Assembly: GCF_003790525.1 (NCBI RefSeq)
Contig: NZ_CP033635.1
From: Escherichia coli
GTDB lineage: Bacteria; Pseudomonadota; Gammaproteobacteria; Enterobacterales; Enterobacteriaceae
Length of the DNA stretch: 64,000 bases
Reading direction: 5' to 3' (one strand)
Below the pieces are notes generated by a model that was not told the origin of the DNA, searched no databases, and worked only from the letters and a program-made list of their open reading frames with translations. Of this stretch, positions 42,802-60,701 are shown piece by piece. Position 1 is the stretch's first letter. Each line of letters begins with the position of its first letter. Both the position numbers and the translations under genes were made by a program.

Positions 42802-44379
42802 ATGACGGAAAACATTCATAAGCATAGCATCCTCATTCTGGACTTCGGTTCCCAGTATACTCAACTGGTTGCGCGCCGCGTGCGTGAGCTGGGCGTTTAC
42901 TGCGAACTGTGGGCGTGGGATGTGACAGAAGCACAAATTCGTGACTTCAATCCAAGCGGCATTATTCTTTCCGGCGGCCCGGAAAGCACCACCGAAGAAA
43001 ACAGCCCGCGTGCGCCGCAGTATGTCTTTGAAGCAGGCGTACCGGTATTCGGCGTTTGCTATGGCATGCAGACCATGGCGATGCAGTTGGGTGGTCACGT
43101 TGAAGCCTCTAACGAACGTGAATTTGGCTACGCGCAGGTTGAAGTCGTAAACGACAGCGCACTAGTTCGCGGTATCGAAGATGCGCTGACCGCAGACGGT
43201 AAACCTCTGCTCGATGTCTGGATGAGCCACGGCGATAAAGTTACCGCTATCCCGTCCGACTTCGTCACCGTAGCCAGCACCGAAAGCTGCCCGTTTGCCA
43301 TTATGGCTAACGAAGAAAAACGCTTCTATGGCGTACAGTTCCACCCGGAAGTGACTCACACCCGCCAGGGTATGCGCATGCTGGAGCGTTTTGTGCGTGA
43401 TATCTGCCAGTGTGAAGCCCTGTGGACGCCAGCGAAAATTATCGACGATGCTGTAGCCCGTATCCGCGAGCAGGTAGGCGACGATAAAGTCATCCTCGGC
43501 CTCTCTGGTGGCGTGGATTCCTCCGTGACCGCAATGCTGCTGCACCGCGCTATCGGTAAAAATCTGACTTGCGTATTCGTCGATAACGGCCTGCTGCGTC
43601 TCAACGAAGCAGAGCAGGTTCTGGATATGTTTGGCGATCACTTTGGTCTGAACATTGTTCACGTTCCGGCAGAAGATCGCTTCCTGTCAGCGTTGGCCGG
43701 CGAAAACGATCCGGAAGCAAAACGTAAAATCATCGGGCGCGTTTTCGTTGAAGTATTCGATGAAGAAGCACTGAAACTGGAAGACGTGAAGTGGCTGGCG
43801 CAGGGCACTATCTACCCTGACGTTATTGAATCTGCCGCATCTGCAACCGGTAAAGCACACGTCATCAAATCTCACCACAACGTGGGCGGCCTGCCGAAAG
43901 AGATGAAGATGGGCCTGGTTGAACCGCTGAAAGAGCTGTTCAAAGACGAAGTGCGTAAGATTGGTCTGGAGCTGGGCCTGCCGTACGACATGCTGTACCG
44001 TCACCCGTTCCCGGGACCAGGCCTTGGCGTTCGTGTTCTGGGTGAAGTGAAGAAAGAGTATTGTGACCTGCTGCGCCGTGCTGACGCCATCTTCATTGAA
44101 GAACTGCGTAAAGCGGACCTGTACGACAAAGTCAGCCAGGCGTTCACCGTCTTCCTGCCGGTACGTTCCGTTGGCGTAATGGGCGATGGTCGTAAGTATG
44201 ACTGGGTTGTCTCTCTGCGTGCTGTCGAAACCATCGACTTTATGACCGCACACTGGGCGCATCTGCCGTACGATTTCCTCGGTCGCGTTTCCAACCGCAT
44301 TATCAATGAAGTGAACGGTATTTCCCGCGTGGTGTATGACATCAGCGGCAAGCCGCCAGCTACCATTGAGTGGGAATGA
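42802..44379 (+). CDS. guaA: GMP synthase
   Basis: 525-aa [38 protein letters not shown]. Confidence 0.95.
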
Positions 44380-44425
44380 TTAACAGCTAACTCATAGCAA
44401 CTCATTCCTATTCAGACACTAATTT

Positions 44426-44458
44426 AACCCTCTGTTTTTACAGAGGGTTTTTGTTTTT
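44426..44458 (+). terminator. Intrinsic terminator of guaA
   Basis: aaccctctg-ttttt-acagagggtt followed by tttgttttt. Confidence 0.6.
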
Positions 44459-44514
44459 ATGTATTCATTTCTATTCACTCTACACCATATTTTTTGGCGG
44501 TACAGGTGACGGTA

Positions 44515-44529
44515 TTACCTTAAAGGTAT
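44515..44529. promoter_or_regulatory. Operator-like palindrome TTACCttaaaGGTAt upstream of integrase
   Basis: Member of the recurring TTACC-N5-GGTAA motif family. Confidence 0.4.
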
Positions 44530-44571
44530 ACTCTCATACCGTCATGAAAATGGTTTCTATACGGGTGAATT

Positions 44572-45822
44572 GTGCTTACCGATACAAAATTAAAGAACCT
44601 CAAGCCACAGGACAAACTGTACAAAGTTTCCGATCGTGACGGGCTGTATGTAGCTGTGCTTACGTCAGGTACGGTCTCGTTTCGCTATGACTACCGTATC
44701 AACGGTCGCCGCGAAACACTGGTAATCGGGCAGTATGGGCGTGACGGTATCAGCCTGGCAGAAGCGCGAGAAGAACTGATTGCTGCAAAGAAGCTGCTTA
44801 AAGCAGGCCAGTCGCCGGCTGCGGCTAAACGTGACGGTATCAAAAAGATTCGTGGTGCCGAGACGTTTGCGGTACATACCGACAGTTATATGAAACACGT
44901 CATCCTGGCTGAAAGTACCCGCGCAATGAAGCAGGCAGTGATCGACCGTGACATACTTCCTGTTCTTGGCAACAAAATGATGACTGAAATTACCACATCG
45001 ATGGTTCGTGATTTGTGTGACCGGATTGTCGAACGCGGTGGTCGGGCAACAGCAGTACAGGCCAGGGAGATCATTAGCAGCGTATACCGTCACGCCAATG
45101 ACCGTGGTCATGGTTTGTTTAATCCTGCGGCTGACATTAAACCTTCGTCTATCGCCATATTTAAACCACGAGAGCGAACACTGACACCAGAAGAAATTGG
45201 TCTGTTCTTCCGCACGCTGGATGCCATTGGTGCTATGGGCACTATGAAAATGGCTTTAAAGCTGGTGCTTATCACTATGGTTCGTAAAGGCGAATTCACC
45301 AATGCAACGTGGGACGAAATAGATTTTAAAAAATGGACATGGACAATTCCTTCAGACCGCATGAAGGGAAGCCGGGCGCACGTTATTTACCTGCCAAAAC
45401 AGGCACAGGATATATTGGTTGGGTTGCAGATGTGCGCTGGTGGAAGTGAATATCTGGTTCCTGGTCGTTACAATTTCCGGAAGCCATTATCTAATGCCGC
45501 ACTGAACTCTCTGATCGACAGAACGGTGAAAATAATAAATGAAGATGGTGAGCATATTCAGGGCTTCACCGTACACGATATGCGCCGTACAGCCAGTACG
45601 TTGTTGCATGAGGCTGGTTATCCTTCAGACTGGATTGAAAAGGCTCTGGCACATGAGCAGAAAGGTGTGCGCGCCGTATATAACAAAGCGGAATACGCCA
45701 GACAGCGCGCCTACATGTTGCAGCAGTGGGCCGATATGATTGATTCCTGGATTAACGGGGAGCATACGGATCTAATTCCGTTCTCCCCGTCGAAGTTTGA
45801 GAAGTGGATGGCGGGGGAATAA
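44572..45822 (+). CDS. Tyrosine-type phage integrase (P4-like family)
   Basis: 416-aa ORF MLTDTKLKNLKPQDKLYKVSDRDGLYVAV..., C-terminal HDMRRTASTLL and catalytic-region motifs; GTG start. Confidence 0.85.
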   Translation: MLTDTKLKNLKPQDKLYKVSDRDGLYVAVLTSGTVSFRYDYRINGRRETLVIGQYGRDGISLAEAREELIAAKKLLKAGQSPAAAKRDGIKKIRGAETFAVHTDSYMKHVILAESTRAMKQAVIDRDILPVLGNKMMTEITTSMVRDLCDRIVERGGRATAVQAREIISSVYRHANDRGHGLFNPAADIKPSSIAIFKPRERTLTPEEIGLFFRTLDAIGAMGTMKMALKLVLITMVRKGEFTNATWDEIDFKKWTWTIPSDRMKGSRAHVIYLPKQAQDILVGLQMCAGGSEYLVPGRYNFRKPLSNAALNSLIDRTVKIINEDGEHIQGFTVHDMRRTASTLLHEAGYPSDWIEKALAHEQKGVRAVYNKAEYARQRAYMLQQWADMIDSWINGEHTDLIPFSPSKFEKWMAGE

Positions 45823-45825
45823 CGT

Positions 45826-46020
45826 TTAATAGTTCTGCTGATTTTCTTCCATCTCTGCTTCTGCTGCCAGTGATTCAATTTTGTTTTCGAATATTGCTGA
45901 CAGTGTTGCAAATTCAGCATCAGTGACAGCGGGAATTGGAACAAACCTGATCCCGCTGTGTGCAAGCATGTTTGCAGTTTCAAGGCATTTTCTTAAATCT
46001 GCTGGTGATGCCCTGTTCAT
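45826..46020 (-). CDS. Hypothetical small acidic protein
   Basis: Internal Met of ORF 45826..46140 positioned right after methylase stop; weak support. Confidence 0.2.
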   Translation of the reverse strand: MNRASPADLRKCLETANMLAHSGIRFVPIPAVTDAEFATLSAIFENKIESLAAEAEMEENQQNY

Positions 46021-46679
46021 GCAGCACGCTCCCGCCCCTGGTTGTCTGTTGGTGACAGCGGAGAATTGCTGAATGCATTTGTTAATCCGCCAATATCCAA
46101 CGCGTATCCAGGGTGTAGTTGCACTGCCGAGTTTTCGCACTGATTACCCCAAACATCGAAGCCATGAGACGACTGGCGGGCGAACAGTTCAATGCGAGAA
46201 ACATCGCCTAACAATTGCACAAGTTTTTCACGAACGACATCTGGTTTTCTTGAGTGCTCAAGCCGCGGTGCGGTAAATGACTGAACGATCCCTGCATTAA
46301 TGCGCGGAGGTAGTTTTCCCTTTACCGCAAACAGGCAATCTTCACTATTGGCGCGGGTCATGTGTCCCATACCCATAACCAGTTTATCTGGTTGTCGACT
46401 ACCACATTTTATCCACGTGAAGCCCTTCATGGTCATAAGACGAAATCCCCAGGCTTCAACAACTTTTAGTGCTTCGAGTGGTTGTGTTGGCACCCACCAC
46501 ATGGCCAACAGACAGTTTTCAGCGGCCAAATCCCACACAGGAAGGCGGCAGATATCCAGCACACTCATAACTGGATATTTAAAACCGGCACCGCGATTAC
46601 CATCTGCGGCTTTGTCCCGGTATACCCAGGGTGGATCTGCATAGATTAGTGTGTATTTCTTAGTCATAAACCACCCCAC
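46017..46679 (-). CDS. DNA N6-adenine methyltransferase (MT-A70-like, orphan)
   Basis: 220-aa ORF with DPPW motif (YTLIYADPPWVYR); no adjacent restriction endonuclease recognised. Confidence 0.7.
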   Translation of the reverse strand: MGWFMTKKYTLIYADPPWVYRDKAADGNRGAGFKYPVMSVLDICRLPVWDLAAENCLLAMWWVPTQPLEALKVVEAWGFRLMTMKGFTWIKCGSRQPDKLVMGMGHMTRANSEDCLFAVKGKLPPRINAGIVQSFTAPRLEHSRKPDVVREKLVQLLGDVSRIELFARQSSHGFDVWGNQCENSAVQLHPGYALDIGGLTNAFSNSPLSPTDNQGRERAA

Positions 46680-47068
46680 AACATCCTATGCCGCCATAGT
46701 CGCCACGGCGAAGGCCGTTACCTTTTGTGATACATTGGTCCCTGCGAACCGCGATCCTTGCACGCTCAACATCACCAGAAGCAACATCCATACACTGAAG
46801 CCAAAGGTGAGCGGCAATGCGGAACTGCCCTTTTTTCTCTCTTTCAATCGCGCGTTTTTCGATCTCTATCGCCGCAGGAGTAACGGCGACAATCTTTGAC
46901 GGACTGCGCATTGAAACCTTGTTCATGTGATATTTTTCAAGTCGGCTTAACTTTCTCACTTAATCCAACCCTCTCTGAAAATTAATGCCAGCAGATAAAG
47001 CCATGCTGAAACAGAGGCCAGGAATAAGTACCATCCTGACCATTTGCTCCAGTGCCTTAGCAGCACAC

Positions 47069-47317
47069 TCATGCAGCGTTGCTCACAGGACGATATACAC
47101 GTTGCTGAACAGGAGGCTTTTTACCCTGGAACTCTGCCGGGCTTGCTGCCTGACGTTCATCAAGCCAACGCTCAACTTCATCACGGTTCCATGCGCAGCG
47201 TTTATCGGTGATATACCAGCGTTTAGGAAATTCCCCTGCGCGCTCCATACGGTCGATAGTGCTCCATGACAGTGGCACCACCGCCAGGAGTTCCTTCTTA
47301 CCTAATGCACCTTTCAT
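47069..47317 (-). CDS. AlpA-family phage regulator / excisionase-like
   Basis: 82-aa ORF with ...STIDRMERAGEFPKRWYITDKRCAWNRDEVERWL... Confidence 0.55.
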   Translation of the reverse strand: MKGALGKKELLAVVPLSWSTIDRMERAGEFPKRWYITDKRCAWNRDEVERWLDERQAASPAEFQGKKPPVQQRVYRPVSNAA

Positions 47318-47366
47318 AAATACCTCTCTTGGTTGCAGTGCGGCGCGCGTGGCGCCGCGGTGGTGG

Positions 47367-48248
47367 TTACATAGATGTTTCGTTTAATTCTTCCCGACGA
47401 ACGCTGTAAACGTCGGTGGCTTTTGCCAGCAGTTCGTCATCATCTGAAAGTTTTTGTGCAATGTATTTGTAAGCCTTATCCAGTTCGGAGACAGTGCTGT
47501 AATTCATCGCTGCGCTGGTAAAGGCCATCAGCATTTCTTCTGGCTCACGGCTATCCGCTTTACGCGTTTGCTCATCAGGCTTTTTCACTGATTTAGCGTT
47601 GATCAGACTGTTCATTCCCGCAGCCGTAGTCATTTGCGGAGTAATGTCTCGCTCAACGCGCGGTGCCGTTTCCTGTAATTCGTCAGGGGTGTAAACACCG
47701 AGAAGTACATCAGGAGCGTGCAGGCGAGCCCATCGTTTCGTGCAAAGATATGCAAGTTGCTGGCGCGGATCCTGTTCCCACAATGGAGAGTTACGCACTC
47801 CTGCTTGCGCCATACTGATGGTAAGCTCACGTGGTTCTGCTTCTCCTTTAAGAACTGCTGACACAGTTACCGTCAGATTCGGTGATTTATCTGTTTTGCC
47901 GTTAACATTCGACCAGTCACCGCTCCAGCGATAATTCAGGCGTGTCGCCAGCAGGCTGGAAGAGGATACGACCGCGTTTACCAACTGTGCTTCGTAGCCT
48001 AACGTTCCGTTTACCACATGCGTTTTCTGCGCCACGGCGAAAGGGTTCATTCCCCACTGTGCCGCCTGCATGGTCACCGCCAGGCAATCGGCAGGTTTGC
48101 CTTCAAGATGTTTCGGTACAGTCGCTTTGCTTTGTGACATCAACTCCGCGAAACGCACCAGTTGATTCATACCCTCGGGGCTGAAGATTGCAGCAGCAGT
48201 GCCTACAGTTGCGCCTGGTTGTGATGTGATTGCGATATCATTGCTCAT
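47367..48248 (-). CDS. Single-strand annealing protein (Bet/RecT-like)
   Basis: 293-aa ORF with QAAQWGMNPF segment resembling lambda Bet; directly downstream of exonuclease-like gene. Confidence 0.5.
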   Translation of the reverse strand: MSNDIAITSQPGATVGTAAAIFSPEGMNQLVRFAELMSQSKATVPKHLEGKPADCLAVTMQAAQWGMNPFAVAQKTHVVNGTLGYEAQLVNAVVSSSSLLATRLNYRWSGDWSNVNGKTDKSPNLTVTVSAVLKGEAEPRELTISMAQAGVRNSPLWEQDPRQQLAYLCTKRWARLHAPDVLLGVYTPDELQETAPRVERDITPQMTTAAGMNSLINAKSVKKPDEQTRKADSREPEEMLMAFTSAAMNYSTVSELDKAYKYIAQKLSDDDELLAKATDVYSVRREELNETSM

Positions 48249-49066
48249 ACGTACATATCCTGTTTACGTGCCCAGTCAGGGCGTTTAATAATTTCCACTC
48301 CGCCCCATTCATCGTTGATGCGGCATTCGTGATAGGTATTCAGATCCCGGCGGAACAGAGCGTGCCCGGCATCGACATCCTGCGCATCCAGCTCGAACAC
48401 GCGTACCGGATACCGACCACAATCAATGCTTTCGCTCACGGCAAGAAAGAAAAAACCATGCGGCTGACCAGTAACCATCATTGCGCCTTCGCGGTACATT
48501 GCGTCCTGCACGTGGTAGCGGAATTCCTCGATGTGGCGTGCAAAACGGTCCATATCTGCAACCTTTTTCACGTCGACGATCACGTTGTGCTCGTTCAGCC
48601 ATTTGTCTGGACGAATTCGGCACAACTCCCCCGTCTCTTCATCGTTCCAGTACATTGATGCTTCGCAGTAACCAGGTGCTTCCAGCATCCAGCGTGCCGC
48701 CGGGTGAGCCATTGCGCTATCACGCATCAGCTCCAGTTTCCGCCACTGCTCGGCATCAAGTACCGTAATCCCCATATCCGCCACATCACGAAGAAATTCC
48801 TCTTCGTCAGCTTTACCTTGTTTCGTCCGACGATCGAATTTCGGTGAAACAATGAAGCGTTTGTCGAACTCTCCAGGCTCCAGAAGCAGACAGTGCAATG
48901 CGGTTCCCATATCCAGTGCAGACTTTTTCTCTTCGTCTTCTGGTGCTGCCTGAACCCATTTAAGAAGCGCCGGATTCTTGGCAACCATGTCCAGTTGCGA
49001 CTTACTCACGCCGTCACCGGCGTGGTAGTCTTCGTTGCTGATGTCGAAATAAATTCCCGGTTTCAT
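48245..49066 (-). CDS. Putative PD-(D/E)xK recombination exonuclease
   Basis: 273-aa ORF with D...IVDVKKV motif, overlapping start/stop with annealase gene. Confidence 0.5.
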   Translation of the reverse strand: MKPGIYFDISNEDYHAGDGVSKSQLDMVAKNPALLKWVQAAPEDEEKKSALDMGTALHCLLLEPGEFDKRFIVSPKFDRRTKQGKADEEEFLRDVADMGITVLDAEQWRKLELMRDSAMAHPAARWMLEAPGYCEASMYWNDEETGELCRIRPDKWLNEHNVIVDVKKVADMDRFARHIEEFRYHVQDAMYREGAMMVTGQPHGFFFLAVSESIDCGRYPVRVFELDAQDVDAGHALFRRDLNTYHECRINDEWGGVEIIKRPDWARKQDMYV

Positions 49067-49377
49067 GCCGCGTCCCTCTGCCCATCAAGCTGATCAGCCA
49101 GATCCCAGCGGGCGATAATTGCCATTGCCTCGCGCCGGTAGGCATCCATTAGTTCTTCGAACTCAGGGCTGTCTTTAGCGGCCTCCAGTACTTCCTGGCG
49201 AACGCCTTTAACTGTTACAACGTCGAAAGTTGATGCCAGTTGATGAAGCCGGATACTCTCAATCAGTTCAACTTGTCGGTCATATAGCTGTTCTGACAGA
49301 CGGTAGTCCTTGTCGAATGCCAGCATGATTTTTTGAAGATTTTTCTGCTGATTAACGTTCATTATCAGCCCTCCCAT
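49063..49377 (-). CDS. Hypothetical early protein
   Basis: 104-aa ORF, first gene of leftward operon, overlapping stop with exonuclease gene. Confidence 0.4.
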   Translation of the reverse strand: MGGLIMNVNQQKNLQKIMLAFDKDYRLSEQLYDRQVELIESIRLHQLASTFDVVTVKGVRQEVLEAAKDSPEFEELMDAYRREAMAIIARWDLADQLDGQRDAA

Positions 49378-49526
49378 ATCTCGTTATCGTTGGCCACATC
49401 GCGAGCTTCTTTGCTGACGAAAGCCCACTTAATGCCTTCCTGTAAGGTGCGGAACTTCCAGCTCATGAATCCGCATGCAGTAACGCAGTACCAACCGTTG
49501 ATGATTTTCCACTGCATAACTTGTTA

Positions 49527-49603
49527 CCTCGGTCTGTTACCGTTGAGGTAATAATTATGCGTATATGGTTTGATGTCAATAGATATGAGTTAAAAAAATT
49601 ACC
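49527..49603. promoter_or_regulatory. OL-like operator pair (two perfect TTACC-N5-GGTAA palindromes)
   Basis: TTACCgttgaGGTAA at 49527-49541 and TTACCcgttaGGTAA at 49589-49603, between leftward early operon and repressor gene. Confidence 0.5.
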
Positions 49604-49670
49604 CGTTAGGTAATCGAATAGGCAATAAAAAAGCCGCCATAAGGCGGCTTACTTACTGAAAAATATGGTT

Positions 49671-50255
49671 TTATTGTTTGTTTTTTTCGTTCTGGTTGAT
49701 GACAAATTCAATGTAACTTTCGATCTTTGCTTTCTCGGTTTCGGGTAACAATGCGTAGCGCGAGCGATCATAGTTGATGGTCGCAGGGTCATGCGGATGA
49801 ATCAGTAGTTCATATCCGTGACGCCCGAATGCAGATGCAACATTCTCCAGGGTGGAAATGGAAACGCTGACCTCATTGTTTAACAGGCGGCTTATTGTCA
49901 CCTGGGCGACGCCGGATGCGCGGTGAAGTTTTCCCTGAGTTGAAAGGTCGCGGCTTTCACTCATCCAGCGTTCCAGGTTGTGAGCCGCCAGCTGACCTAT
50001 ATCACTCGGGCCGACAGGCTGAAAACCCTCCTGAGAAAGCGAGCGATCAATATCAAGCCAGTTACGGGGTTTATTGGCGGCAGCTTCAATTTTTCGCGCA
50101 ACCTGGTCGCCGATAACCTTCTTGCCAAGAGCCCAGCGGTTTACCAGATTTGCCTGAGTTCCAAGTTTTTCTGCCATCCGCGTCTGAACACCATTGAATT
50201 CACGGTCGATCAAGTCGTTGAGATTTTGCCTGCGGACGTCCTGGATACTTTTCAT
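49671..50255 (-). CDS. Prophage repressor (two HTH regions)
   Basis: 194-aa ORF divergent from cro-like gene; HTH-like segments QTRMAEKLGTQANLVNRWALGKK and ASGVAQVTISRLLNNE. Confidence 0.55.
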   Translation of the reverse strand: MKSIQDVRRQNLNDLIDREFNGVQTRMAEKLGTQANLVNRWALGKKVIGDQVARKIEAAANKPRNWLDIDRSLSQEGFQPVGPSDIGQLAAHNLERWMSESRDLSTQGKLHRASGVAQVTISRLLNNEVSVSISTLENVASAFGRHGYELLIHPHDPATINYDRSRYALLPETEKAKIESYIEFVINQNEKNKQ

Positions 50256-50310
50256 TTTCTGGAAAATCGCCTCATATATGAATCAGTAGATGATTCAATT
50301 TAAAGCAATA

Positions 50311-50373
50311 TTACCCAACAGGTAAATGCACCTCATGGGTAACTATCCTTGATTTTTGTTACCTTATGGGTGA
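50311..50373. promoter_or_regulatory. OR-like operator cluster between repressor and cro-like genes
   Basis: TTACCcaacaGGTAA (50311-50325), weak gcACCtcatgGGTAA (50328-50342), TTACCttatgGGTgA (50359-50373); promoter-like TTGTTA-17-TATTAT overlaps. Confidence 0.5.
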
Positions 50374-50409
50374 ATATTTATTATCTGAAATAAATATCAG
50401 GCAATAGCT

Positions 50410-50640
50410 ATGAGCGATAACGGACATTTCGATTTCAAAAAGCACTGGCTTGCACTTACTCCGGATGAGCGTGAAGCCTTCGCACAGGAAGCCGGAACGA
50501 CGAGTCACTATATCCAGACTCACTTAACAGGTAAGCGCAAAATGCCAGGTAAAGTATTGATGAATGGGCTTTTTAAAGCCTGTAAAACAAGACAATGGCT
50601 GCGCTCAAAAGCAGAACTGGCATACTTCTTCTACTCATGA
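50410..50640 (+). CDS. Cro-like early regulator
   Basis: 76-aa ORF divergent from repressor; followed by terminator. Confidence 0.45.
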   Translation: MSDNGHFDFKKHWLALTPDEREAFAQEAGTTSHYIQTHLTGKRKMPGKVLMNGLFKACKTRQWLRSKAELAYFFYS

Positions 50641-50662
50641 TATCCAGCTACAACCCTCTGTA

Positions 50663-50684
50663 GACCGCCACCCGGCGGTCTTTT
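50663..50684 (+). terminator. Intrinsic terminator after cro-like gene
   Basis: gaccgcc-accc-ggcggtc followed by tttt. Confidence 0.5.
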
Positions 50685-50695
50685 CATATCTATTC

Positions 50696-50710
50696 GTACC
50701 TCAAAGGTAA
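50696..50710. promoter_or_regulatory. Operator-like palindrome gTACCtcaaaGGTAA
   Basis: Motif family member immediately after the cro terminator. Confidence 0.35.
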
Positions 50711-50788
50711 TAAAAAACCAAATCTGGTTGATCAAATTTTCCAATTGTGCAAAATAGCCAATATCAATAACAAAAAGGTGCGGAAAAA

Positions 50789-51001
50789 TTGAAGATAGTA
50801 ACCAGAATGGAGGCCGCAAAAGCCGGGTTAAATCGCTATTTCACAGGAAAGCGGTGCCGTCACGGCCATCTCTCTGAAAGGTATGTTCTGAACGGAACAT
50901 GTGTTGAATGTGCAATGAATAGCGCCAACCGCCATCGTAATGAATTTGCTTGTGCACTAAAGAGTGCAAGAGGGGAAACCTATGGCAAGCAGCTGGATTA
51001 A
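50789..51001 (+). CDS. Small zinc-ribbon-like protein
   Basis: 70-aa ORF with C-x-H-G-H ... C-x2-C; TTG start in track, true start uncertain. Confidence 0.35.
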   Translation: MKIVTRMEAAKAGLNRYFTGKRCRHGHLSERYVLNGTCVECAMNSANRHRNEFACALKSARGETYGKQLD

Positions 51002-51812
51002 GGTTGAAGTTATCACTCCTGATAAACCTGAAATTTTTCAGATAGCAGAAATTCTGGGTATTGATCCAGATGCTGTTCTTGGAAAGCTGGTTCGTATATG
51101 GGCATGGGCTGACCAGCAAACAATAGACGGTAACGCTGGCAGCGTTACAAAAGGAGTACTTGATAGACTCGCTTTTATTACAGGATTTGCTGACGCCCTC
51201 ATTAGCGTCGGATGGCTTGCTTATCATGACGGCAAACTAATTCTTCCAAACTTTGAGCGACACAATGGAGAATCATCGAAAAAACGTGCACTTACGAATA
51301 GAAGAGTGGCAGAGCATCGAAAACGAGTAACGCAAAAAGTAACGCCAACAGCGTTACAAAAGGAGTTACCAGAGGAAGAGGAAGAGGAAGATATATATAA
51401 AACCCCACACATAGCGCACGTGCGCGAGGGGGCTACGACCAGTGAAGCGAACGGTATGCCGTTGCAGGTGGCTGAACCTGAATTTCTGGATGGCCTGAGT
51501 GAACCCATCGGGAAATTTCCGATGACCGATGACTGGCATCCGTCGCCGGATTTTCGACGGCGTGCTGCGCTGTGGGGAACGGCCCTGCCGGAACCGGAAT
51601 TTACACCTGCTGAACTTGCTGCATTCCGGGATTACTGGATGGCTGAGGGCAAAGTGTTCACGCAGGTTCAGTGGGAACAAAAATTCGCCAGGCACGTAAA
51701 TCATATCAGGGGAAAATCAAAAAACGCCGGGAAAAGCGATGAGCTTGACTGGAATAACACTGACTGGATAGAAGGGGTGTGGGATGAAATCAACTCCAGA
51801 ACTTCTCAATGA
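50982..51812 (+). CDS. Replication initiation protein (O-like)
   Basis: Start MASSWIKVEV after GAGGGG RBS; acidic EEEEEED linker; overlaps start of P-like gene. Confidence 0.45.
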   Translation: MASSWIKVEVITPDKPEIFQIAEILGIDPDAVLGKLVRIWAWADQQTIDGNAGSVTKGVLDRLAFITGFADALISVGWLAYHDGKLILPNFERHNGESSKKRALTNRRVAEHRKRVTQKVTPTALQKELPEEEEEEDIYKTPHIAHVREGATTSEANGMPLQVAEPEFLDGLSEPIGKFPMTDDWHPSPDFRRRAALWGTALPEPEFTPAELAAFRDYWMAEGKVFTQVQWEQKFARHVNHIRGKSKNAGKSDELDWNNTDWIEGVWDEINSRTSQ

Positions 51813-52560
51813 GTACGATCGCTTACGTGAGCATGGTGTTGCTGTGCATGAAGAGCGGCGTGACAGCAATGGCAAAAAGGAGCAGGTCGCTAGAATTTTC
51901 AATGAACTATTTGTCCAGTTACAGGCTGCATTTCCCGCAAGCGTTTCGACCATAAGGGAGCAGAACAAACTTAATGAATTCCGTAAGCAATGGATGCTTG
52001 CGTTTCTGGAGAATGGGATCACAACAATGGAACAGGTTAACGCTGGTATGCGCCACGCCCGCGCCAGTGAGTCTCCGTTCTGGCCGTCGCCAGGGCAATT
52101 TATCAAGTGGTGTAAAGACAGCAAGATGGTTCTTGGCGTCACCATTGACGATGTGATGGCGGAGTTTCACCGGTACAGCAAGGAAAAAAGTTTATATCCT
52201 GGTGGTCCCGAAAGATTCCCGTGGCGGCATCCGGTTATGTACTGGGTCGTATGTGATACCCGCCGTGCAATGTATCAGCGCCAGCTTAGCGAGATTGAAG
52301 TTGAGAAACACGCGCGCAGGCTGCTCGATGATTGGGCGAAAAAGGTGGCTTCCGGGCAGCAGATACCCGATCCGGTGATCAGCATACAGGCAAAGCCAGA
52401 ACCCATGAGTACGCCTCCGGACACAGGGAGAGACGTTTACCACCCGCCAGGGCGAAGTTTCGGGTGCATGCCTAACGCCGCCACCCTTGGGGGAATAACA
52501 CCGGCTCAGTGGCTGATGGAGGAATACAGGCGGGGAAAGGCGGCAGGATTTATCAAGTAA
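51784..52560 (+). CDS. Replication protein P-like (DnaB helicase loader)
   Basis: 258-aa ORF with ENGITTMEQVNAGMRHAR and PSPGQF, matching lambda P as recalled. Confidence 0.75.
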   Translation: MKSTPELLNEYDRLREHGVAVHEERRDSNGKKEQVARIFNELFVQLQAAFPASVSTIREQNKLNEFRKQWMLAFLENGITTMEQVNAGMRHARASESPFWPSPGQFIKWCKDSKMVLGVTIDDVMAEFHRYSKEKSLYPGGPERFPWRHPVMYWVVCDTRRAMYQRQLSEIEVEKHARRLLDDWAKKVASGQQIPDPVISIQAKPEPMSTPPDTGRDVYHPPGRSFGCMPNAATLGGITPAQWLMEEYRRGKAAGFIK

Positions 52561-52597
52561 TACCAGCGCGATAGCGCATTTTTTTACGCCTTGATAA

Positions 52598-52612
52598 TTA
52601 CCTGTAGGGTAA
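52598..52612. promoter_or_regulatory. Operator-like palindrome TTACCtgtagGGTAA
   Basis: Perfect motif family member. Confidence 0.4.
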
Positions 52613-52659
52613 CAAAATATTCTAAACTCTATTGATTTCGTGTCTTATGTGGTTTTTAA

Positions 52660-52674
52660 TTACCTCAGAGGTAA
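52660..52674. promoter_or_regulatory. Operator-like palindrome TTACCtcagaGGTAA 3 nt upstream of ATG
   Basis: Perfect palindrome overlapping the translation initiation region of the 52678 gene. Confidence 0.4.
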
Positions 52675-52677
52675 ATC

Positions 52678-53022
52678 ATGAGAAAACAGATACAGGCTCT
52701 TGGTCGACTCAAAACAGGCCAGATGAACAAAACAGAATCTGCGTATTGCCAGCACCTTGAGCTGCGTAAACGTGCAGGGGAAATCGCCTGGTATCGATTC
52801 GAGGGTATCAAGCTGCGGTTAGCTGACAACACGTTCTATACGCCCGATTTTGCTGTGATGCTCGCCACCGGCGAGATGGAACTGCACGAAGTGAAAGGTT
52901 TCTGGACCGACGACGCTAGGGTGAAAACCAAAGTCGCCGCAGATCAGTATCCGTTCCGAATCATCGGGGTAACGGTTAAACCAAAGAAAGCAGGTGGTGG
53001 CTGGAACATCGAAGAGTTCTGA
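52678..53022 (+). CDS. Small PD-(D/E)xK-like nuclease (nin-region)
   Basis: 114-aa ORF with YTPDFAVM...GEMELHEVKGFW (D, E-x-K pattern). Confidence 0.4.
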   Translation: MRKQIQALGRLKTGQMNKTESAYCQHLELRKRAGEIAWYRFEGIKLRLADNTFYTPDFAVMLATGEMELHEVKGFWTDDARVKTKVAADQYPFRIIGVTVKPKKAGGGWNIEEF

Positions 53023-53083
53023 ATCGACGATCTTTTTAGTTATCAATGTAATCAATAAGTTATGTGGATAAGCGAGGGTAAAG

Positions 53084-53626
53084 ATGGAAAGTAATATCAA
53101 AGGGTTAGTTGCCGCCGGGCATGAGATGGCTTCGGAACTGAAAGCTGAATGTGGTGCCGTTGATATGCGTAGTGTGGCAAAGCTGCTCAGCGATTTGGCA
53201 ACGCAACTGGAAGTGCAACTGGTGCGTGCTAATGCGCTGGCCGAAGACCAACAGAGAGCGATTGAGTCAATTAAGCAGGCTGATTCGGCTGTTAAGTTGG
53301 CACACAAGAAGTTTTCGGAGCTGGCAGCGGAGAATGCGGCACTGAAGGCTGCGCACCCTCAACCATTCGGACCTGAGATGATGAAGGCTCTTGATGCGTA
53401 TGAGAAGTATCAGGATGAAGTGCCGGAGACTGGGATGCTCAATGCATTTTTCATCTTGCGCGACAGTATCCGTGTTGACACCCCAGCCACCGACGCTTTC
53501 CTAGCTGAAGTTCGAGCGCAGGGTGTAGATATGGCAGCTTGCGCCCTTGATAACGTAAACCAGTTCAATTACGCAAACATGCTCGATGATTTAGCGCAGA
53601 AGATTCGCAAAGGAGTGCAGTCATGA
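53084..53626 (+). CDS. Hypothetical phage protein
   Basis: 180-aa ORF, helical/coiled-coil composition. Confidence 0.4.
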   Translation: MESNIKGLVAAGHEMASELKAECGAVDMRSVAKLLSDLATQLEVQLVRANALAEDQQRAIESIKQADSAVKLAHKKFSELAAENAALKAAHPQPFGPEMMKALDAYEKYQDEVPETGMLNAFFILRDSIRVDTPATDAFLAEVRAQGVDMAACALDNVNQFNYANMLDDLAQKIRKGVQS

Positions 53627-53808
53627 AAAACCGTAAAGCCAAAATCATCGTTCTTCGCGCTCTGAAAAACTGCTACCCGCGCCAATGGCTGAATGTAAGC
53701 AATCGACGCATGGTTCTCTTCACGCTAGGTGGTGTTAGCCGTGAAGGGCATCAATTCAAAAACAGCGCAGCACAGAATCGCTGGAAGAATCATGCGAGGT
53801 TCCAATGA
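53623..53808 (+). CDS. Small basic protein, paralog 1 (MKNRKAK family)
   Basis: 61-aa ORF starting ATGAAAAACCGTAAAGC, ATGA overlap with upstream stop; ends AAQNRWKNH. Confidence 0.35.
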   Translation: MKNRKAKIIVLRALKNCYPRQWLNVSNRRMVLFTLGGVSREGHQFKNSAAQNRWKNHARFQ

Positions 53809-53914
53809 GCAATATCGACAAGCGGCCTCTACGTGACAAGCTGTCACCGTATGACACAGAAGAGATGCTTGAGGCTATGCGTATTTTTCTGTAAGAACAG
53901 GGAGGTGAGCAAAA

Positions 53915-54232
53915 ATGACGATCACAAAACAACGGGTAGAAGAAATCATATCCCGCATTGAAATGTATGGGCATGGCGCAGGGTATACCGCCGAAGAGGT
54001 TTATGACCTGGCTGTACTGGCGCTGAATTTATCAAATATCGCAAAACTCAAGCGATACGAGCTTGATATGGATGGTTGTGACTCGTTCGGTCAGGATTGT
54101 GGCGCTGACATGACTGAAGATTCTGATGGCGATTATGTCCTGTTTGATGACGTGGTTAAGTTGTTTGAGTTTGATACAACCACTCAGAAGATAGAAAGCC
54201 CAGCAAAGGAGGCAACCAGTGAGCAAGATTGA
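53915..54232 (+). CDS. Hypothetical phage protein
   Basis: 105-aa acidic ORF. Confidence 0.35.
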   Translation: MTITKQRVEEIISRIEMYGHGAGYTAEEVYDLAVLALNLSNIAKLKRYELDMDGCDSFGQDCGADMTEDSDGDYVLFDDVVKLFEFDTTTQKIESPAKEATSEQD

Positions 54233-54773
54233 CTATCAGGCACTGCGTGAAAAGGCAGAGAAAGCAACGTGTGGTGTATGGTCGATCGAATATGGAGAGA
54301 GCCGATTTGATGGTGATGATGCGTTAATTCACCGTGAAGTTGCTGGATATATTCCCATTTGCAGAATTGAAGGAGCGCATCCTGAAAGCGGTTTCGATGA
54401 AGATTTCCAAACTGAACAGCAGGCCAATGCTGAATTCATCGCCGCAGCCAATCCGGCTACTGTGCTGGCGCTTCTGGATGAACGGGAAAGAAACCAGCAA
54501 TACATCAAACGCCGCGACCAGGAGAACGAGGATATTGCGCTAACGGTAGGGAAGCTGCGCGTTGAGCTGGAAGCCGCAGAGAAGCGCATAGCAGAACTGG
54601 AAGCGCGGGAAATACTGCTCCCTGAACGTAGCAGCATGCTTCATCGAACAGATTTTCACGATGATTACCAAACGGTAATGGCATACAAAGTTTCTGAAGT
54701 CATCGATGCAATCCGCGCTACTGGCATTTGCATCAAAGGAGACGCAGGAGAGCAAAACGATGAAAAACCGTAA
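54219..54773 (+). CDS. Ead/Ea22-like protein
   Basis: 184-aa ORF MSKIDYQALREKAEKATCGVWSIEYGE, resembles lambdoid Ea22-like proteins. Confidence 0.5.
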   Translation: MSKIDYQALREKAEKATCGVWSIEYGESRFDGDDALIHREVAGYIPICRIEGAHPESGFDEDFQTEQQANAEFIAAANPATVLALLDERERNQQYIKRRDQENEDIALTVGKLRVELEAAEKRIAELEAREILLPERSSMLHRTDFHDDYQTVMAYKVSEVIDAIRATGICIKGDAGEQNDEKP

Positions 54774-54936
54774 AGCAAAATTACTTCTTTTATCGCGTTC
54801 GACGGGGTACGAGAAGCTACCAATCAGCAATCACAAACGGGCGGTGATCGGCATGTTTGGTAGGGTGGTATTCGCATTTAACTATAAACCCACCGCGTCG
54901 CGGAACAGACGAGAGAAGGGGTACGCAGTGCGATGA
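54760..54936 (+). CDS. Small basic protein, paralog 2 (MKNRKAK family)
   Basis: Starts with the same ATGAAAAACCGTAAAGC inside the 3' end of the Ea22-like gene. Confidence 0.3.
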   Translation: MKNRKAKLLLLSRSTGYEKLPISNHKRAVIGMFGRVVFAFNYKPTASRNRREKGYAVR

Positions 54937-55124
54937 AAAACCGTAAGGCAAAGATGCTGATAGCAAAGCCCGGGCAGCGTATCCGTATCTCAAATCGGCT
55001 TGTTATTTACTATAGATATCTGGGTTTTAGGGGGTGTTCCTCTATTCGTTTTTACGGTGTCTGGCGAAACAGAAGCGCAGCACAAAACCGCTGGAAAAAC
55101 CACTTTCGCACTAAAGGAGAGTGA
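54933..55124 (+). CDS. Small basic protein, paralog 3 (MKNRKAK family)
   Basis: 63-aa ORF, same 5' sequence, ends SAAQNRWKNH like paralog 1. Confidence 0.35.
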   Translation: MKNRKAKMLIAKPGQRIRISNRLVIYYRYLGFRGCSSIRFYGVWRNRSAAQNRWKNHFRTKGE

Positions 55125-55125
55125 T

Positions 55126-55875
55126 ATGACCACTTTCACCGACAAAGAACTGATTAAAGAAATCAAAGAGCGTATCAGCAGCCTGGACGTTCGAGACAAT
55201 ATTGAACGCCGGGCTTATGAAATTGCACTGGCATCGCTGGAAGCAGATCCAGTTGCTTATATTTTCAAACATCCGGCCGGGAAATTATTCTGGGCTTTGA
55301 CGGATGAAAGCAATAAAGAGCAATCGGACGTTATTCCTGTTTATGCCGCCCCTCCAGTGCCAGTAGTACCTGAAGAAAAACCAATGCCTAACCCTCTTAA
55401 AATGTACGCGGTCGATGCTGTTGCCGCTATTGCAGAGGTGAGAGGCTGGAACGCCTGCCGCGCCGCCATGCTTCAGGCCGAACCTGTAAGTAATAGTGAT
55501 GAGTTACCGCTGGACTATCTGCAAGGACACAAAGACGGCCTGGAGTGGGCTGCACAATTGGCAGAAGCCAATCATCCGCAAACAGGTGACTGGTTGTACG
55601 ACGACCCAATCGATCTTGCCAGGGCGATTCGCAAAGGTCCTGATATGCCTACTGTTCAGGCTGGCAACTATCCGGTAACTCCGGATGGTTGGATAAGCTG
55701 TAGTGAGCGAATGCCCGCTCAAGATGATTGGATTTTTATTTATTCAAAGCACGGCGAGTATATGGCAGGACAGGTACAAGGGGAATACGTGGAGTTGAGC
55801 GACGGCACTTTATCGTGGTTAGGGAACGCCTTGTACTGGATGCCTCTACCGGAACCGCCGCAGGAGGTTAATTGA
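55126..55875 (+). CDS. DUF551-family phage protein
   Basis: Start MTTFTDKELIKEIK after GGAG RBS; C-terminal YWMPLPEPP signature. Confidence 0.55.
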   Translation: MTTFTDKELIKEIKERISSLDVRDNIERRAYEIALASLEADPVAYIFKHPAGKLFWALTDESNKEQSDVIPVYAAPPVPVVPEEKPMPNPLKMYAVDAVAAIAEVRGWNACRAAMLQAEPVSNSDELPLDYLQGHKDGLEWAAQLAEANHPQTGDWLYDDPIDLARAIRKGPDMPTVQAGNYPVTPDGWISCSERMPAQDDWIFIYSKHGEYMAGQVQGEYVELSDGTLSWLGNALYWMPLPEPPQEVN

Positions 55876-56159
55876 TGGTCTCCTTCGCGAAATATACGAT
55901 TATTGACTGGATAGCATTCATTCAGGTTTTGCTCATCTGGTTTTATATGGCTTACAGGAGTGGACAGTGGATTGTCAGTGTAGCCTGTAGCAATGGATGG
56001 CGTTGGTGGAACCGAAAGAATAAAAAAGCGCTGGCCTTGGCTTCGTTTTACGAAGCATTCAATCTTAACAGTCTTCAGCCTGGTTCTGTCGTTGTAGTCA
56101 CCACTCAAAGCGGCATGACGATACAAATTCACAAGCCAAAGGAGGAAGGTCGTGGCTAA
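55872..56159 (+). CDS. Hypothetical small membrane protein
   Basis: 95-aa ORF with hydrophobic N-terminal segment. Confidence 0.3.
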   Translation: MMVSFAKYTIIDWIAFIQVLLIWFYMAYRSGQWIVSVACSNGWRWWNRKNKKALALASFYEAFNLNSLQPGSVVVVTTQSGMTIQIHKPKEEGRG

Positions 56160-56433
56160 CCTGCAACTTGCCGTTAAAGGTGAATACTTCGATGCCATGA
56201 TTCGCGGGGAGAAAACGGAAGAGTATCGCCTGTGTAATGACTACTGGAATAAGCGAATTATGTTCCGCGAGTATGACCGCCTGATTATCACAAAGGGATA
56301 TCCGAAGCGCGACGATTCCAGCCGCAGAATTGACGTCCCGTATGACGGATATGAAATCAAGACAATCACACATCCGCACTTCGGCGATAAACCGGTAAAG
56401 GTGTTCGCTATAAAGGTGAATATTGATGGCTAA
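56152..56433 (+). CDS. ASCH-domain-like protein
   Basis: 93-aa ORF MANLQLAVKGEYFDAMIRGEKTEEYR. Confidence 0.4.
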   Translation: MANLQLAVKGEYFDAMIRGEKTEEYRLCNDYWNKRIMFREYDRLIITKGYPKRDDSSRRIDVPYDGYEIKTITHPHFGDKPVKVFAIKVNIDG

Positions 56434-56764
56434 ATCAGCAGCAGAGCGCAAAGCCGCGCAGCGCGCTCGGCAGTCCGCCGCCGGTGAGCGCAAAATTGAA
56501 CTGGTGCTGGATAAGCAGGAGCAGGAAATGCTGGCGCGGAACTGCGCCGCCCGGCGCCCTGGTCACGATCCCTATGAAATGGCCGAGTACATCGCGCTGC
56601 TGATCCGCCAGGATGATGCACGTGTGCGCGGGCGTATAAAATCGATCAGTAGAAAACGTTGCGGTAAGTGCGGCGAGAGAGTTCCAGTTAATTCATGTCC
56701 GTGTAATGGTGACTCGCAATGCTGGGTGACTAAAGGCTGGCATGAAACGAAATTAATAGTGTGA
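56423..56764 (+). CDS. Cys-rich hypothetical protein upstream of terminase
   Basis: 113-aa ORF with basic N-terminus and C-terminal CGKCG...CPCNGDSQC. Confidence 0.4.
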   Translation: MMAKSAAERKAAQRARQSAAGERKIELVLDKQEQEMLARNCAARRPGHDPYEMAEYIALLIRQDDARVRGRIKSISRKRCGKCGERVPVNSCPCNGDSQCWVTKGWHETKLIV

Positions 56765-56882
56765 CATGTCACGAGTAGATTATGCATGATGAATTTGATG
56801 GGTTTTGAATACTGCCGCCAACTATGGCGGCTTTATTTTGCATGGTACTATTACCACAACGGTAACTATTACCACGGTGGTT

Positions 56883-57479
56883 ATGATGCCTGCTGAACCT
56901 AAAACCTATAAACGCAAATCAACGCAATTTAAGCCGCTCACAGCAATGCAGGAGGCTTATTGCCAGTCATACATCAAAACGCCTGAAAACCAGACTCAGG
57001 CAGCGATTAACGCAGGATTCTCCCCAAATACAGCGGCAGTTAAAGCCAGTGTCATGATGCGCGATGAACGCATTCAAAAACGGATTGCCGAGTTGATGGA
57101 GGAGCGCAACAAACGAATGCGCGTCAGTGCTGATTACGTTCTCATGCGCCTGGTGGAGATCGACCAGATGGACGTGATCGATATCCTCAACGACGATGGG
57201 AGCCTTAAACCAATCCGTGAGTGGCCGAAAATCTGGCGCACTACGCTTAGTGGCTTTGATCTGTCATCGACCATCATGAACATGAACGAGGATTCGATAG
57301 AGACAATCCTCAAAAAAATTAAATGGCCTGACAAGGTGAAGAACCTCGAACTGATTGGTAAGCACGTCGACGTTAACGCGTTCAAAGAACGTCTGGATGT
57401 TAATGTGAATGTGACAATTGCTGATCGCATAGCAGCAGCCAGGAAGCGACTCAAAGAACGTCAGGATGGTAATCAGTGA
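56883..57479 (+). CDS. Terminase small subunit
   Basis: Positioned immediately before terL with GTGA stop/start overlap; start inferred at MMPAEPKTYKRK. Confidence 0.5.
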   Translation: MMPAEPKTYKRKSTQFKPLTAMQEAYCQSYIKTPENQTQAAINAGFSPNTAAVKASVMMRDERIQKRIAELMEERNKRMRVSADYVLMRLVEIDQMDVIDILNDDGSLKPIREWPKIWRTTLSGFDLSSTIMNMNEDSIETILKKIKWPDKVKNLELIGKHVDVNAFKERLDVNVNVTIADRIAAARKRLKERQDGNQ

Positions 57480-58950
57480 CAGATACAGCGTTATCTCCTG
57501 AAGAGCAGTTGATCGAGGATATTGCAGGGTTCACTCACGATCCGCTTGGCTATGCCCTCTATGCGTTCCCGTGGGGGAAGAGGGTACTGAACTGGCACAT
57601 GCCACCGGCCCACGTCAGTGGCAGGCTGATGCGTTCCGAGAGATACGTGATCACCTGCAGAATCCAGAGACGCGCTATCAGCCGCTTATGCTGGCACGCG
57701 CTTCTGGTCACGGTATTGGTAAATCCGCATTCATCTCAATGCTGATCAACTGGGGCATGTCCACTTGCGAGGATTGTAAGGTCGTGGTGACCGCCAACAC
57801 CGACAACCAGCTACGAACTAAGACCTGGCCGGAAATTATCAAGTGGTCGAACCTTGCTATCACGAAAGACTGGTTTACCTGTACCGCTACCGCGATGTAC
57901 AGCAATGATCCTGGGCACGACAAGCGGTGGCGAGCTGACGCAATCCCTTGGTCTGAGCACAACACTGAGGCATTCGCCGGACTACACAACGAGCGTAAAC
58001 GCATCATCGTGGTATTTGATGAAGCGTCGAACATTGCGGATCTGGTGTGGGAAGTTGCCGAGGGTGCGCTAACGGACGAAGACACTGAGATTATCTGGGT
58101 GGCGTTCGGAAACCCTACACGTAACACCGGACGTTTCCGCGAATGTTTCCGCAAATATAAACACCGCTGGAAAACTGCGCAGATTGACAGCCGAACGGTG
58201 GAAGGCACTAACAAACAGCAGTTGCAGAAATGGGTTGATGACTACGGGGAAGACAGCGACTTCGTTAAAATCCGTGTGCGCGGCATATTCCCTGATGCAT
58301 CTGAATTGCAGTTTATCCCTACCGGTCTTACTGATGAGGCAATGAAACGGGTGGTGACCGCTGCGCAGGTGGCGCATGCTCCGGTGATAATCGGTGTTGA
58401 CCCGGCATATTCAGGCGTTGATGACGCGGTGATATACCTGCGGCAGGGGCTACACAGTAAGGTGCTGTGGACTGGCAACAAGACTACCGACGATCTGATT
58501 ATGGCGAAGCGTATCGCTGACTTTGAAGACCAGTATCAGGCTGACGCGGTGTTCATCGACTTCGGTTACGGAACCGGTTTGAAGTCAATCGGTGATGGCT
58601 GGGGACGTACATGGCAACTTGTTCCGTTCGGTGGCGCGTCTACTGACCCGCAGATGCTCAACAAGCGTGGGGAGATGTTCAACTCATGCAAGACATGGCT
58701 GAGGCTCGGCGGCATGCTGGATGACCAGGAAACTGCAGACGACCTGTCGGCGGCAGAGTACAAAGTTCGTGTGGACGGTAAAATCGTTATCGAACCGAAG
58801 GAAGATATCAAAGAGCGGCTTGGGCGTTCGCCTGGTAAAGGCGATGCGCTACTGCTGACGTTTGCTTTCCCGGTGTCAAAGCGCCTGCGACTTCCCGGGC
58901 AGCAGAACCAGCAAGGCAAGGCGCTTACCGAGTACGATCCATATGCTTAG
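57476..58950 (+). CDS. Terminase large subunit, apparently frameshifted in a G5 run (57573-57577)
   Basis: Coupled GTG start 57476 gives 32 codons in one frame; Walker-A (GHGIGKS) body continues in another frame from 57571; adding one G restores a single ORF. Confidence 0.7.
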
Positions 58951-59765
58951 TCTTTATTTTTATCCTCGAAACCTGATAATCCAGATAGAACACCAAAGTT
59001 ATTAAAAACGTTTGGCTTACCAGATTTTAATCCGGATAAGTTGTGTTGCTCCAAAAAGTTACTAATTGTTTGGCCGTTGCCAAGTGCAAGGCTTTTTATT
59101 TGAGATTTTTCAGGGTATTTGAGTTTGTATTCGTCGAAATCATTTTGGAGGGTCTTATATGCCTCATTCATTCTTCCAAGAGTTTCCGATATCTCTTTTA
59201 ATGAATGATTTAGAGCTGCTAACTGAGCACTGGCGGATCTCAATTCGTCATCTTTAGCTTTCAACTCGGCAGTCAATTCACCCATACTATTCTTTGATCG
59301 AATAATCTCTTCTTTCATCTCTTGGATGTCTTTTTCCGCGCCAGTCTTAACTTTGTCGTATGTAACATCTTTTTTAGCCAATAACCTCTGCAGTCTTGTT
59401 TCACGCTGGATTTTTCTTGCCTTCAGGTGATTTTCGATTGAGTCATTATTATCAAGAGGCTTTGCTTGCCATACGTTAATGATATTGTTTACCCATGGTA
59501 ATAGGCAGCAGATAGCAATTACAGATAAGCATGGATAAAACATAACAGTTTTCCATGTGCTGTTATCTGAGATATATGAAATTTTATCTATTATGTTTGA
59601 TTTGCTAAAAAATAGATAAAGAATTGATTTCCAGTTGAAGGCGCACCAGGACATAACAAAAGCACCAAGCACAGGGTTTTTGGCTCGATTCACGGCAGTA
59701 TTGGCAGTAGATAAAAACAGCTCTTTGAACGATTCAAACATGCTAATTACCTTGAAGTTTTTCAT
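58947..59765 (-). CDS. AT-rich moron: membrane protein with coiled-coil C-terminal region
   Basis: Start inferred at MKNFKVISMF; two hydrophobic segments then Lys/Glu-rich heptad-like region; opposite strand to structural genes. Confidence 0.55.
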   Translation of the reverse strand: MKNFKVISMFESFKELFLSTANTAVNRAKNPVLGAFVMSWCAFNWKSILYLFFSKSNIIDKISYISDNSTWKTVMFYPCLSVIAICCLLPWVNNIINVWQAKPLDNNDSIENHLKARKIQRETRLQRLLAKKDVTYDKVKTGAEKDIQEMKEEIIRSKNSMGELTAELKAKDDELRSASAQLAALNHSLKEISETLGRMNEAYKTLQNDFDEYKLKYPEKSQIKSLALGNGQTISNFLEQHNLSGLKSGKPNVFNNFGVLSGLSGFEDKNKD

Positions 59766-59769
59766 GATT

Positions 59770-59784
59770 ATACCTTTAAGGTAA
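59770..59784. promoter_or_regulatory. Operator-like palindrome next to moron start, overlapping a TATAAT element
   Basis: On moron strand reads TTACCttaaaGGTATAATcATG. Confidence 0.4.
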
Positions 59785-59801
59785 TTTGCGGTCATCAAGC
59801 A

Positions 59802-59825
59802 AAAAAATGCCCGGCGAACCGGGCG
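59802..59825 (-). terminator. Intrinsic terminator downstream of phage tRNA
   Basis: Minus strand gcccgg-ttcg-ccgggc followed by attttttt. Confidence 0.5.
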
Positions 59826-59987
59826 AACTGGAAGCAATGAGTTATGCCTTCCGTGGCTGTACGGGTTTACAGCATGAAGTCATCGCAATGGCGTCCTGCT
59901 GTAAAAAGGGCGGTGATAGTCCTTCAAGGGAAACCATCACCGCCAAGCCCCTGGAACTTCTGGCATCACGGTCCTTAGGCGTGATTC

Positions 59988-60064
59988 TGGCGCGGCATGC
60001 AGGATTCGAACCTGCGACCAACCGCTTAGAAGGCGGTTGCTCTGTCCAACTGAGCTAATGCCAC
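59988..60064 (-). tRNA. tRNA-Arg (anticodon UCU), phage-encoded
   Basis: 77-nt cloverleaf folded by hand: acceptor GTGGCAT/ATGCCGC, anticodon loop CTTCTAA, T-loop GCAGG-TTCGAAT-CCTGC, encoded CCA. Confidence 0.85.
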
Positions 60065-60386
60065 AACGCTGAGAGCACTTAGCCTGTTAAGGCACCACAC
60101 TTTGTCGCGGCTCCATAAATGCTCTCATCGTTGCACCCTCGTCTCTTCCGAGGTGTCACACCGAATCGCCGGGATGGTGAATCCCCGTGCGCGGAATAAA
60201 ACCGCTCGACTTGCACATTCCGGCTACCTGGTTCGTTTGCCCGAGCAAGGGAGGGTGCCCCTTAAACGTATCCAGACCGCTATCGGCGCATGTGCCATAC
60301 ACCGTACTGCTCAAAATAAAAGCTCACCCCACCTGTTCAATTTAACGACAAGCCAGTCAGGTTAATAACCGGAATGAACTCTTTGC

Positions 60387-60401
60387 TTACCTGAAAGGTA
60401 A
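60387..60401. promoter_or_regulatory. Operator-like palindrome TTACCtgaaaGGTAA upstream of head genes
   Basis: Perfect motif family member, followed by TAATAAT. Confidence 0.4.
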
Positions 60402-60687: not shown

Positions 60688-60701
60688 CCGGAGTCATTGA
60701 A

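Follow-up and report, generated by a model that had tools for sequence, protein, structure and literature searches.

The guaA-integrase junction of an Escherichia coli genome is a prophage attL whose core lies in the last codons of guaA

The question raised by this locus is where host DNA ends and phage DNA begins. The window, by which we mean the whole analysed stretch of 64,000 nucleotides from Escherichia coli (assembly GCF_003790525.1, contig NZ_CP033635.1), contains guaA, encoding GMP synthase, on the plus strand at 42802-44379, and downstream of it on the same strand an integrase gene at 44572-45822. A first-pass annotation made from the letters alone had let guaA end at 44379 and the integrase start at 44572, and both boundaries are borne out by the open reading frames. 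The guaA frame is complete (525 aa, C-terminus ...PPATIEWE), and the gene carries this name in matching genomes. The same annotation had read the intervening gap as a prophage attachment junction containing the attL core, with guaA followed by its own intact terminator. We found that the junction is a real prophage attL and one that is already known; the identification was correct, but the core had been misplaced.

The integrase is of the P4 type, as had been proposed, and several comparisons support this assignment. The gene has a GTG start and encodes a full-length protein of 416 aa with the Pfam domains Arm-DNA-bind_3, Phage_int_M and Phage_integrase (E-values 8e-20, 2e-11 and 1e-18, respectively), which also matches the phrog_1 integrase. 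It shares 414 of 416 residues (99%) with the integrase of phage phiV10, and this phiV10 orthologue is annotated as cd00801 INT_P4. With P4 Int itself, BLASTP found 29% identity over ~410 aa (E 2e-41), and the catalytic R, H-x-x-R, H and Y are in register in the two proteins (VRKGE/VRSSE, HDMRR/HGFRT, LAH/LSH and AVY/AAY). Over positions 44380-64000, temperate podophages of the genus Uetakevirus, HEMP4, TL-2011b, vB_EcoP_ZX5, PAS61 and phiv142-3 among them, match at 96-98% identity across 74-84% of the length, and phiV10 matches the first 12.4 kb (43% of the query) at 95.8% identity. The open reading frames of this region encode, besides the integrase, an MT-A70 methylase, RecT, a PD-(D/E)XK exonuclease, a CI-like repressor, replication proteins, the small and large terminase subunits and a portal protein. 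Since collinearity with podophages of the phiV10/TL-2011b/ZX5 type extends from 44572 all the way to the window's end, the prophage runs off the window.

The window stops after 19.4 kb of prophage, and attR was therefore read in relatives, namely E. coli 702/18 and viral loci in IMG/VR. Among complete E. coli genomes none matched the whole prophage segment in full; the best, 702/18, covered 89% of it at 99.1% identity. In this strain a 2-kb stretch across the guaA-int junction matches the window at 100% identity, and the prophage sits between guaA and yfgI. When the guaA/int junction of the window was compared with the yfgI/lysis-gene junction of 702/18, the longest exact word was a 17-mer, ATTGAGTGGGAATGATT, whose far-end copy lies between yfgI and a DUF2514 (Rz-like) gene; by our own estimate, ~8e-6 such matches would be expected by chance between two segments of ~350 nt. 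The direct repeat that had been predicted beyond the window is thus found, at the prophage end facing yfgI in the most similar complete genome. The free phages phiV10 and vB_EcoP_ZX5 carry ATTGAGTGGGAATGATT in attP, where it is preceded by the sequence that forms the left arm of attR and followed by a right arm that equals 44382-44571 of the window save a few SNPs and runs into int. In IMG/VR, loci with the 17-mer comprised 7 attP, 9 attL and 87 attR-type junctions (P arm, core, host flank), and the last of these had an E. coli-type host flank in 28 cases and other host flanks in 59.

The empty site completes the comparison. In K-12 MG1655, guaA is followed directly, after 92 bp, by yfgI, as the first-pass annotation had expected of an unoccupied site; the core is intact and continues into TGACCCTGCACTATGAATGAACAAAACCCTCTGTTACTACAGAGGGTTTTTT, the host flank found at attR. 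A reconstructed attB, consisting of the guaA 3' end, the core and the attR host flank, was uninterrupted in 4567 of 5426 complete E. coli genomes, with 100% identity in several. In this four-way comparison ATTGAGTGGGAATGATT was the sole stretch common to attL, attR, attP and attB; this relation, the empty sites, the identity of the integrase and the published experimental core are the established parts of the reading. Int adjoins guaA in 566 complete E. coli genomes. The search for this arrangement gave only 13 places beyond one per record, and because guaA is present in every genome, int is almost never found away from it. Some genomes gave up to three places, which may represent tandem elements. 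As a separate observation, ~858 of 5425 complete genomes lack a contiguous guaA-yfgI, as against the 566 with int adjoining guaA, so that ~290 genomes hold something else at or near the site, possibly variant integrases or islands resembling GIsul2.

In the window the core occupies 44365-44381 on the plus strand. Read in the guaA frame as ATT GAG TGG GAA TGA TT, it comprises codons 522-525 (I-E-W-E) and the stop codon TGA with a further TT. Of its 17 bp, 15 thus belong to guaA and just 2 to the gap 44380-44571, which corrects the earlier placement of the whole core in the gap. Insertion at a protein gene, with no tRNA at the site, stood up to scrutiny: the sole tRNA that ARAGORN found in the window lies 15 kb from the junction, inside the prophage, and it found none in the gap. 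The idea that the phage had entered the flank of that gene did not, since a core overlapping codons and the stop means that the phage enters the 3' end of guaA and rebuilds it. We also considered a cryptic RNA target in the gap. This was rejected: Rfam gave no family at gathering score in 44250-44700, with sub-threshold terminator-like matches only, and ARAGORN gave no tRNA.

Taken together, we consider it about 95% probable that 44365-44571 is the attL of a Uetakevirus prophage of the phiV10/epsilon15/TL-2011b/vB_EcoP_ZX5 type at its canonical site, the 3' end of guaA. In the mechanism that we propose, the P4-type Int would recombine the 17-bp core of attP with its exact counterpart at the 3' end of guaA, and cleavage would fall somewhere within these 17 bp. 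The GuaA C-terminus (...TIEWE) matches that of uninterrupted strains, because the exchange falls within identical sequence. All DNA 3' of 44381 is of phage origin and includes a terminator, conserved blocks, a cluster of CGGTAY motifs and then int, and the native guaA terminator together with yfgI remains past attR, outside the window. At attR the predicted order is ...CGTAAATA-ATTGAGTGGGAATGATT-T(T)GA(T)CCCTGCACT..., with the native terminator AAAACCCTCTGTTACTACAGAGGGTTTTTT next. The locus has the features of prophages that rebuild a gene's 3' end: coding sequence forms part of the core, and frame, stop codon and terminator are all restored by the phage arm.

The gap sequence follows the core in free-phage attP, and the entire gap is therefore phage P' arm (44382-44571, plus strand), collinear with the attP of phiV10 and ZX5 and carrying blocks conserved in 21 distinct relatives. 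It contains the only terminator-like site that a pattern scan found in 44200-44800, a rho-independent terminator on the plus strand at 44426-44459 whose stem spans 44426-44449 and precedes a T tract, with a folding energy of -15.9 kcal/mol and, against shuffles, a z of -5.3. The hairpin had been taken for the intact terminator of guaA itself. However, the attP of phiV10 and that of ZX5 have it in the equivalent position, and so it is supplied by the phage and replaces the native one; the phiV10 record marks the same hairpin as a terminator. The native guaA terminator (-17.8 kcal/mol) is kept with yfgI at attR, ~39 kb away. Placed between the convergent guaA and yfgI and flanked by an A tract and, on its opposite side, a T tract, it may work bidirectionally. 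The phage copy would restore termination of guaA and shield int from guaBA read-through. A consensus scan of 44200-44800 gave no sigma-70 promoter for int.

The phage terminator and the native guaA terminator of E. coli and Salmonella share an identical 10-bp stem, AACCCTCTGT/ACAGAGGGTT, whereas core and hairpin are separated by unrelated sequences, of 44 nt in the phage and 27-28 nt in the host. The phage terminator is kept in diverged relatives whose spacer sequence has drifted; the left arm of its stem is invariant and the right arm shows only wobble-compatible changes, and as these changes are one-sided, the covariation support is limited. Some attR junctions have a host guaA terminator of another type (AAGCCCGCG...CGCGGGCTTTTTT). 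The shared stem and its retention in diverged relatives, some of them in hosts with a different guaA terminator, suggest that the guaA 3' flank was captured ancestrally. We therefore raise, as a tentative and rather doubtful proposal, that the P' arm is a conserved, host-derived 'repair kit' selected to insulate guaBA from int.

Alignment of the 21 distinct P' arms defined four conserved features. CAGCTA abuts the 3' side of the core. The block TCATTYCTATTCA occurs as two direct copies on the plus strand that flank the terminator, TCATTCCTATTCA at 44402-44414, which was read from the sequence and is conserved in diverged P' arms, and TCATTTCTATTCA at 44465-44477, followed by an invariant CTCTA; these paired blocks may bind an accessory protein. 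CTATTCACTCTA is likewise invariant among the 21 arms. The fourth feature is the CGGTAY cluster at 44496-44545, with CGGTAC at 44498 and CGGTAT at 44510 as direct repeats 12 bp apart, AGGTAT at 44524, and an inverted GACGGTAT at 44536-44543; the CGGTAY motifs are also conserved in diverged relatives. Over the window GACGGTAT was observed 7 times against 1.04 expected, and five of the seven occurrences fall within 44508-45091. Three exact copies lie inside the int frame, at 44743-44750 and 44833-44840 on the plus strand and at 45084-45091 on the minus strand. Both plus-strand copies encode R-D-G-I, and the copies inside int may be coincidental.

A corresponding arrangement is found on the other side of the core. 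The best conserved block of the P arm, even in very diverged elements, is a tandem pair, GTGACGGTAT-ATAA-AACGGTAC (full sequence GTGACGGTATATAAAACGGTAC), 77-60 bp before the core and with the same 12-bp spacing as on the P' arm. Since P4 attP shows the same geometry, the CGGTAY repeats are probably arm-type sites for the N-terminal arm-binding domain of Int; they could also, or instead, regulate int. Two further P-arm segments are conserved, CTCAATTGGTTAT, ~35-23 bp before the core and one mismatch from the IHF consensus WATCAANNNNTTR, and GTAAATA, which abuts the core. These are candidate accessory-factor and core-type sites, offered as a lead only.

Three other explanations deserve consideration. 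If the crossover core lay in 44380-44571, with guaA and its own terminator untouched and the phage inserted in the flank, one would expect just what is seen at first glance, namely a gap separating an intact guaA frame from int and a terminator 3' of guaA. Yet the sequence 44382-44571 stands 3' of the core in free-phage attP, the empty sites in K-12 and other strains lack it, attL and attR are identical over only 2 bp within the gap, and the published core is the guaA-overlapping 17-mer (PMC9782041). We consider flank insertion to have next to no chance of being correct. It might also be argued that the prophage is a defective remnant that can no longer move, which would make attL a fossil, given that only 19.4 kb of the element is visible and that past ~53.5 kb it differs from the nearest genome, as a mosaic element would. 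This appears improbable: the integrase is complete and shares 99% identity with its counterpart in phiV10, an inducible phage, the core and P' arm are essentially identical to those of a functional attP, and the 19.4 kb of visible sequence stays collinear with viable phages as far as the terminase and portal genes; moreover, a lysogen of the related ZX5 was induced spontaneously (PMC9782041).

The remaining alternative concerns only the CGGTAY cluster, which, lying 30-75 bp upstream of the int start and containing a 9-bp inverted repeat (TGACGGTAT ... ATACCGTCA), would be well placed as an operator at which a repressor or an Xis-like protein controls int, rather than as a set of Int arm sites. 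We regard this as unlikely, because a tandem CGGTAY pair with the same 12-bp spacing stands on the P arm, far from int, and is conserved in very diverged elements, and because the annotated arm repeats of P4 are laid out alike, including the inverted copy at the int start. Operator and arm-site roles are not mutually exclusive, and P4 Int is reported to autoregulate through such sites. The preferred reading thus remains an attL whose core lies within guaA and whose gap is phage P' arm, with the CGGTAY repeats as probable Int arm sites.

Further inside the prophage, a minus-strand gene at 47069-47317 encodes an AlpA/Vis-like helix-turn-helix protein of 82 aa that matches phrog_66, 'excisionase and transcriptional regulator' (E 2e-16), and whose counterpart in 702/18 is annotated as a helix-turn-helix regulator. 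On the strength of this similarity it is a candidate excisionase and likely the directionality factor; NCBIfam gave no match for this protein or for a DUF1382 ORF. The prophage of 702/18 is near-identical elsewhere but differs in the early-region segment ~53500-56500, where the window has ead/Ea22-like and DUF551-type ORFs; the divergence indicates mosaic exchange within the phage family. The tRNA mentioned above is a prophage-encoded tRNA-Arg(UCU) at 59988-60064 (minus strand), between the terminase and portal genes, which is also annotated in 702/18 and in O157 typing phages 9 and 10. Adjoining it, the minus-strand ORF 58947-59837 (up to 296 aa) has low GC (~40%) and predicted membrane and coiled-coil character and is a moron-like insert; at this spot 702/18 has a different gene, encoding a 139-aa hypothetical protein. 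PADLOC gave weak coiled-coil matches only, and the ORF therefore received no defence assignment.

For annotation, these results mean that the prophage boundary should be set at 44365-44381, in the last codons of guaA rather than in the intergenic gap, and that the terminator 3' of guaA should be credited to the phage. The 3' end of guaA is a recognised integration hotspot, occupied in ~16% of complete E. coli genomes, and by this type of integrase in ~10%. The junction can serve for prophage typing and in itself brings no new biology. If the repair kit proposed above is real, and if the original accounts of phiV10 and epsilon15 do not contain it, the kit and the CGGTAY layout would be an undescribed detail of att architecture.

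The published core and the published guaA site identify the junction as a known feature. In ZX5 a distance of 190 bp separates the attP core, attgagtgggaatgatt, from the integrase gene downstream, and attB is at the guaA 3' end, with attB, attL and attR confirmed by PCR and Sanger sequencing (PMC9782041). The same core is given for phiV10 and epsilon15 in a passage of PMC9782041 that cites Perry 2009 and Kropinski 2007, and TL-2011b was reported 'within the guaA gene' (PMC3293862). The att sites of phiV10, epsilon15 and ZX5 have the 17-bp core found here, a near-identical P' arm and the same position between guaA and yfgI; they differ from the window by a few SNPs in the P' arm and, further inside, by a mosaic cargo and early region. 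The resistance island GIsul2, which has related islands at guaA, also integrates at the guaA 3' end, at GAGTGGGA, a sequence inside the same 17-bp core, and it is mobilised by a tyrosine integrase in company with an alpA gene (PMC9376610). GIsul2 is different in being a resistance island of ~15 kb with other cargo and a shorter reported core, and the likeness is one of site and gene types.

P4 offers a parallel in the layout of the arms. Its Int is homologous over the full length and has the same domain set as the window Int. The distal arm of P4 attP has two adjacent 12-bp repeats ~54 bp from the core, the int-proximal arm has two adjacent repeats ~113 bp from it, an inverted arm repeat stands at the int start, and one copy lies inside int; the geometry shared with the window phage thus puts tandem pairs of arm repeats ~55-60 bp from the core on the distal arm, spaced 12 bp apart, and ~115 bp from it on the int-proximal arm. 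The target in P4 is tRNA-Leu, the core is 20 bp and the repeat is of the GGGGGCA type, in contrast to guaA, 17 bp and CGGTAY here. Finally, phage 21 and e14 provide another case of a prophage that enters the 3' end of a housekeeping gene, icd, and brings a substitute 3' end that leaves the gene functional. In icd the substituted segment is much longer and some codons are changed, whereas in guaA 12 coding bases and the stop codon are swapped for identical sequence, and the phage supplies a substitute terminator as well.
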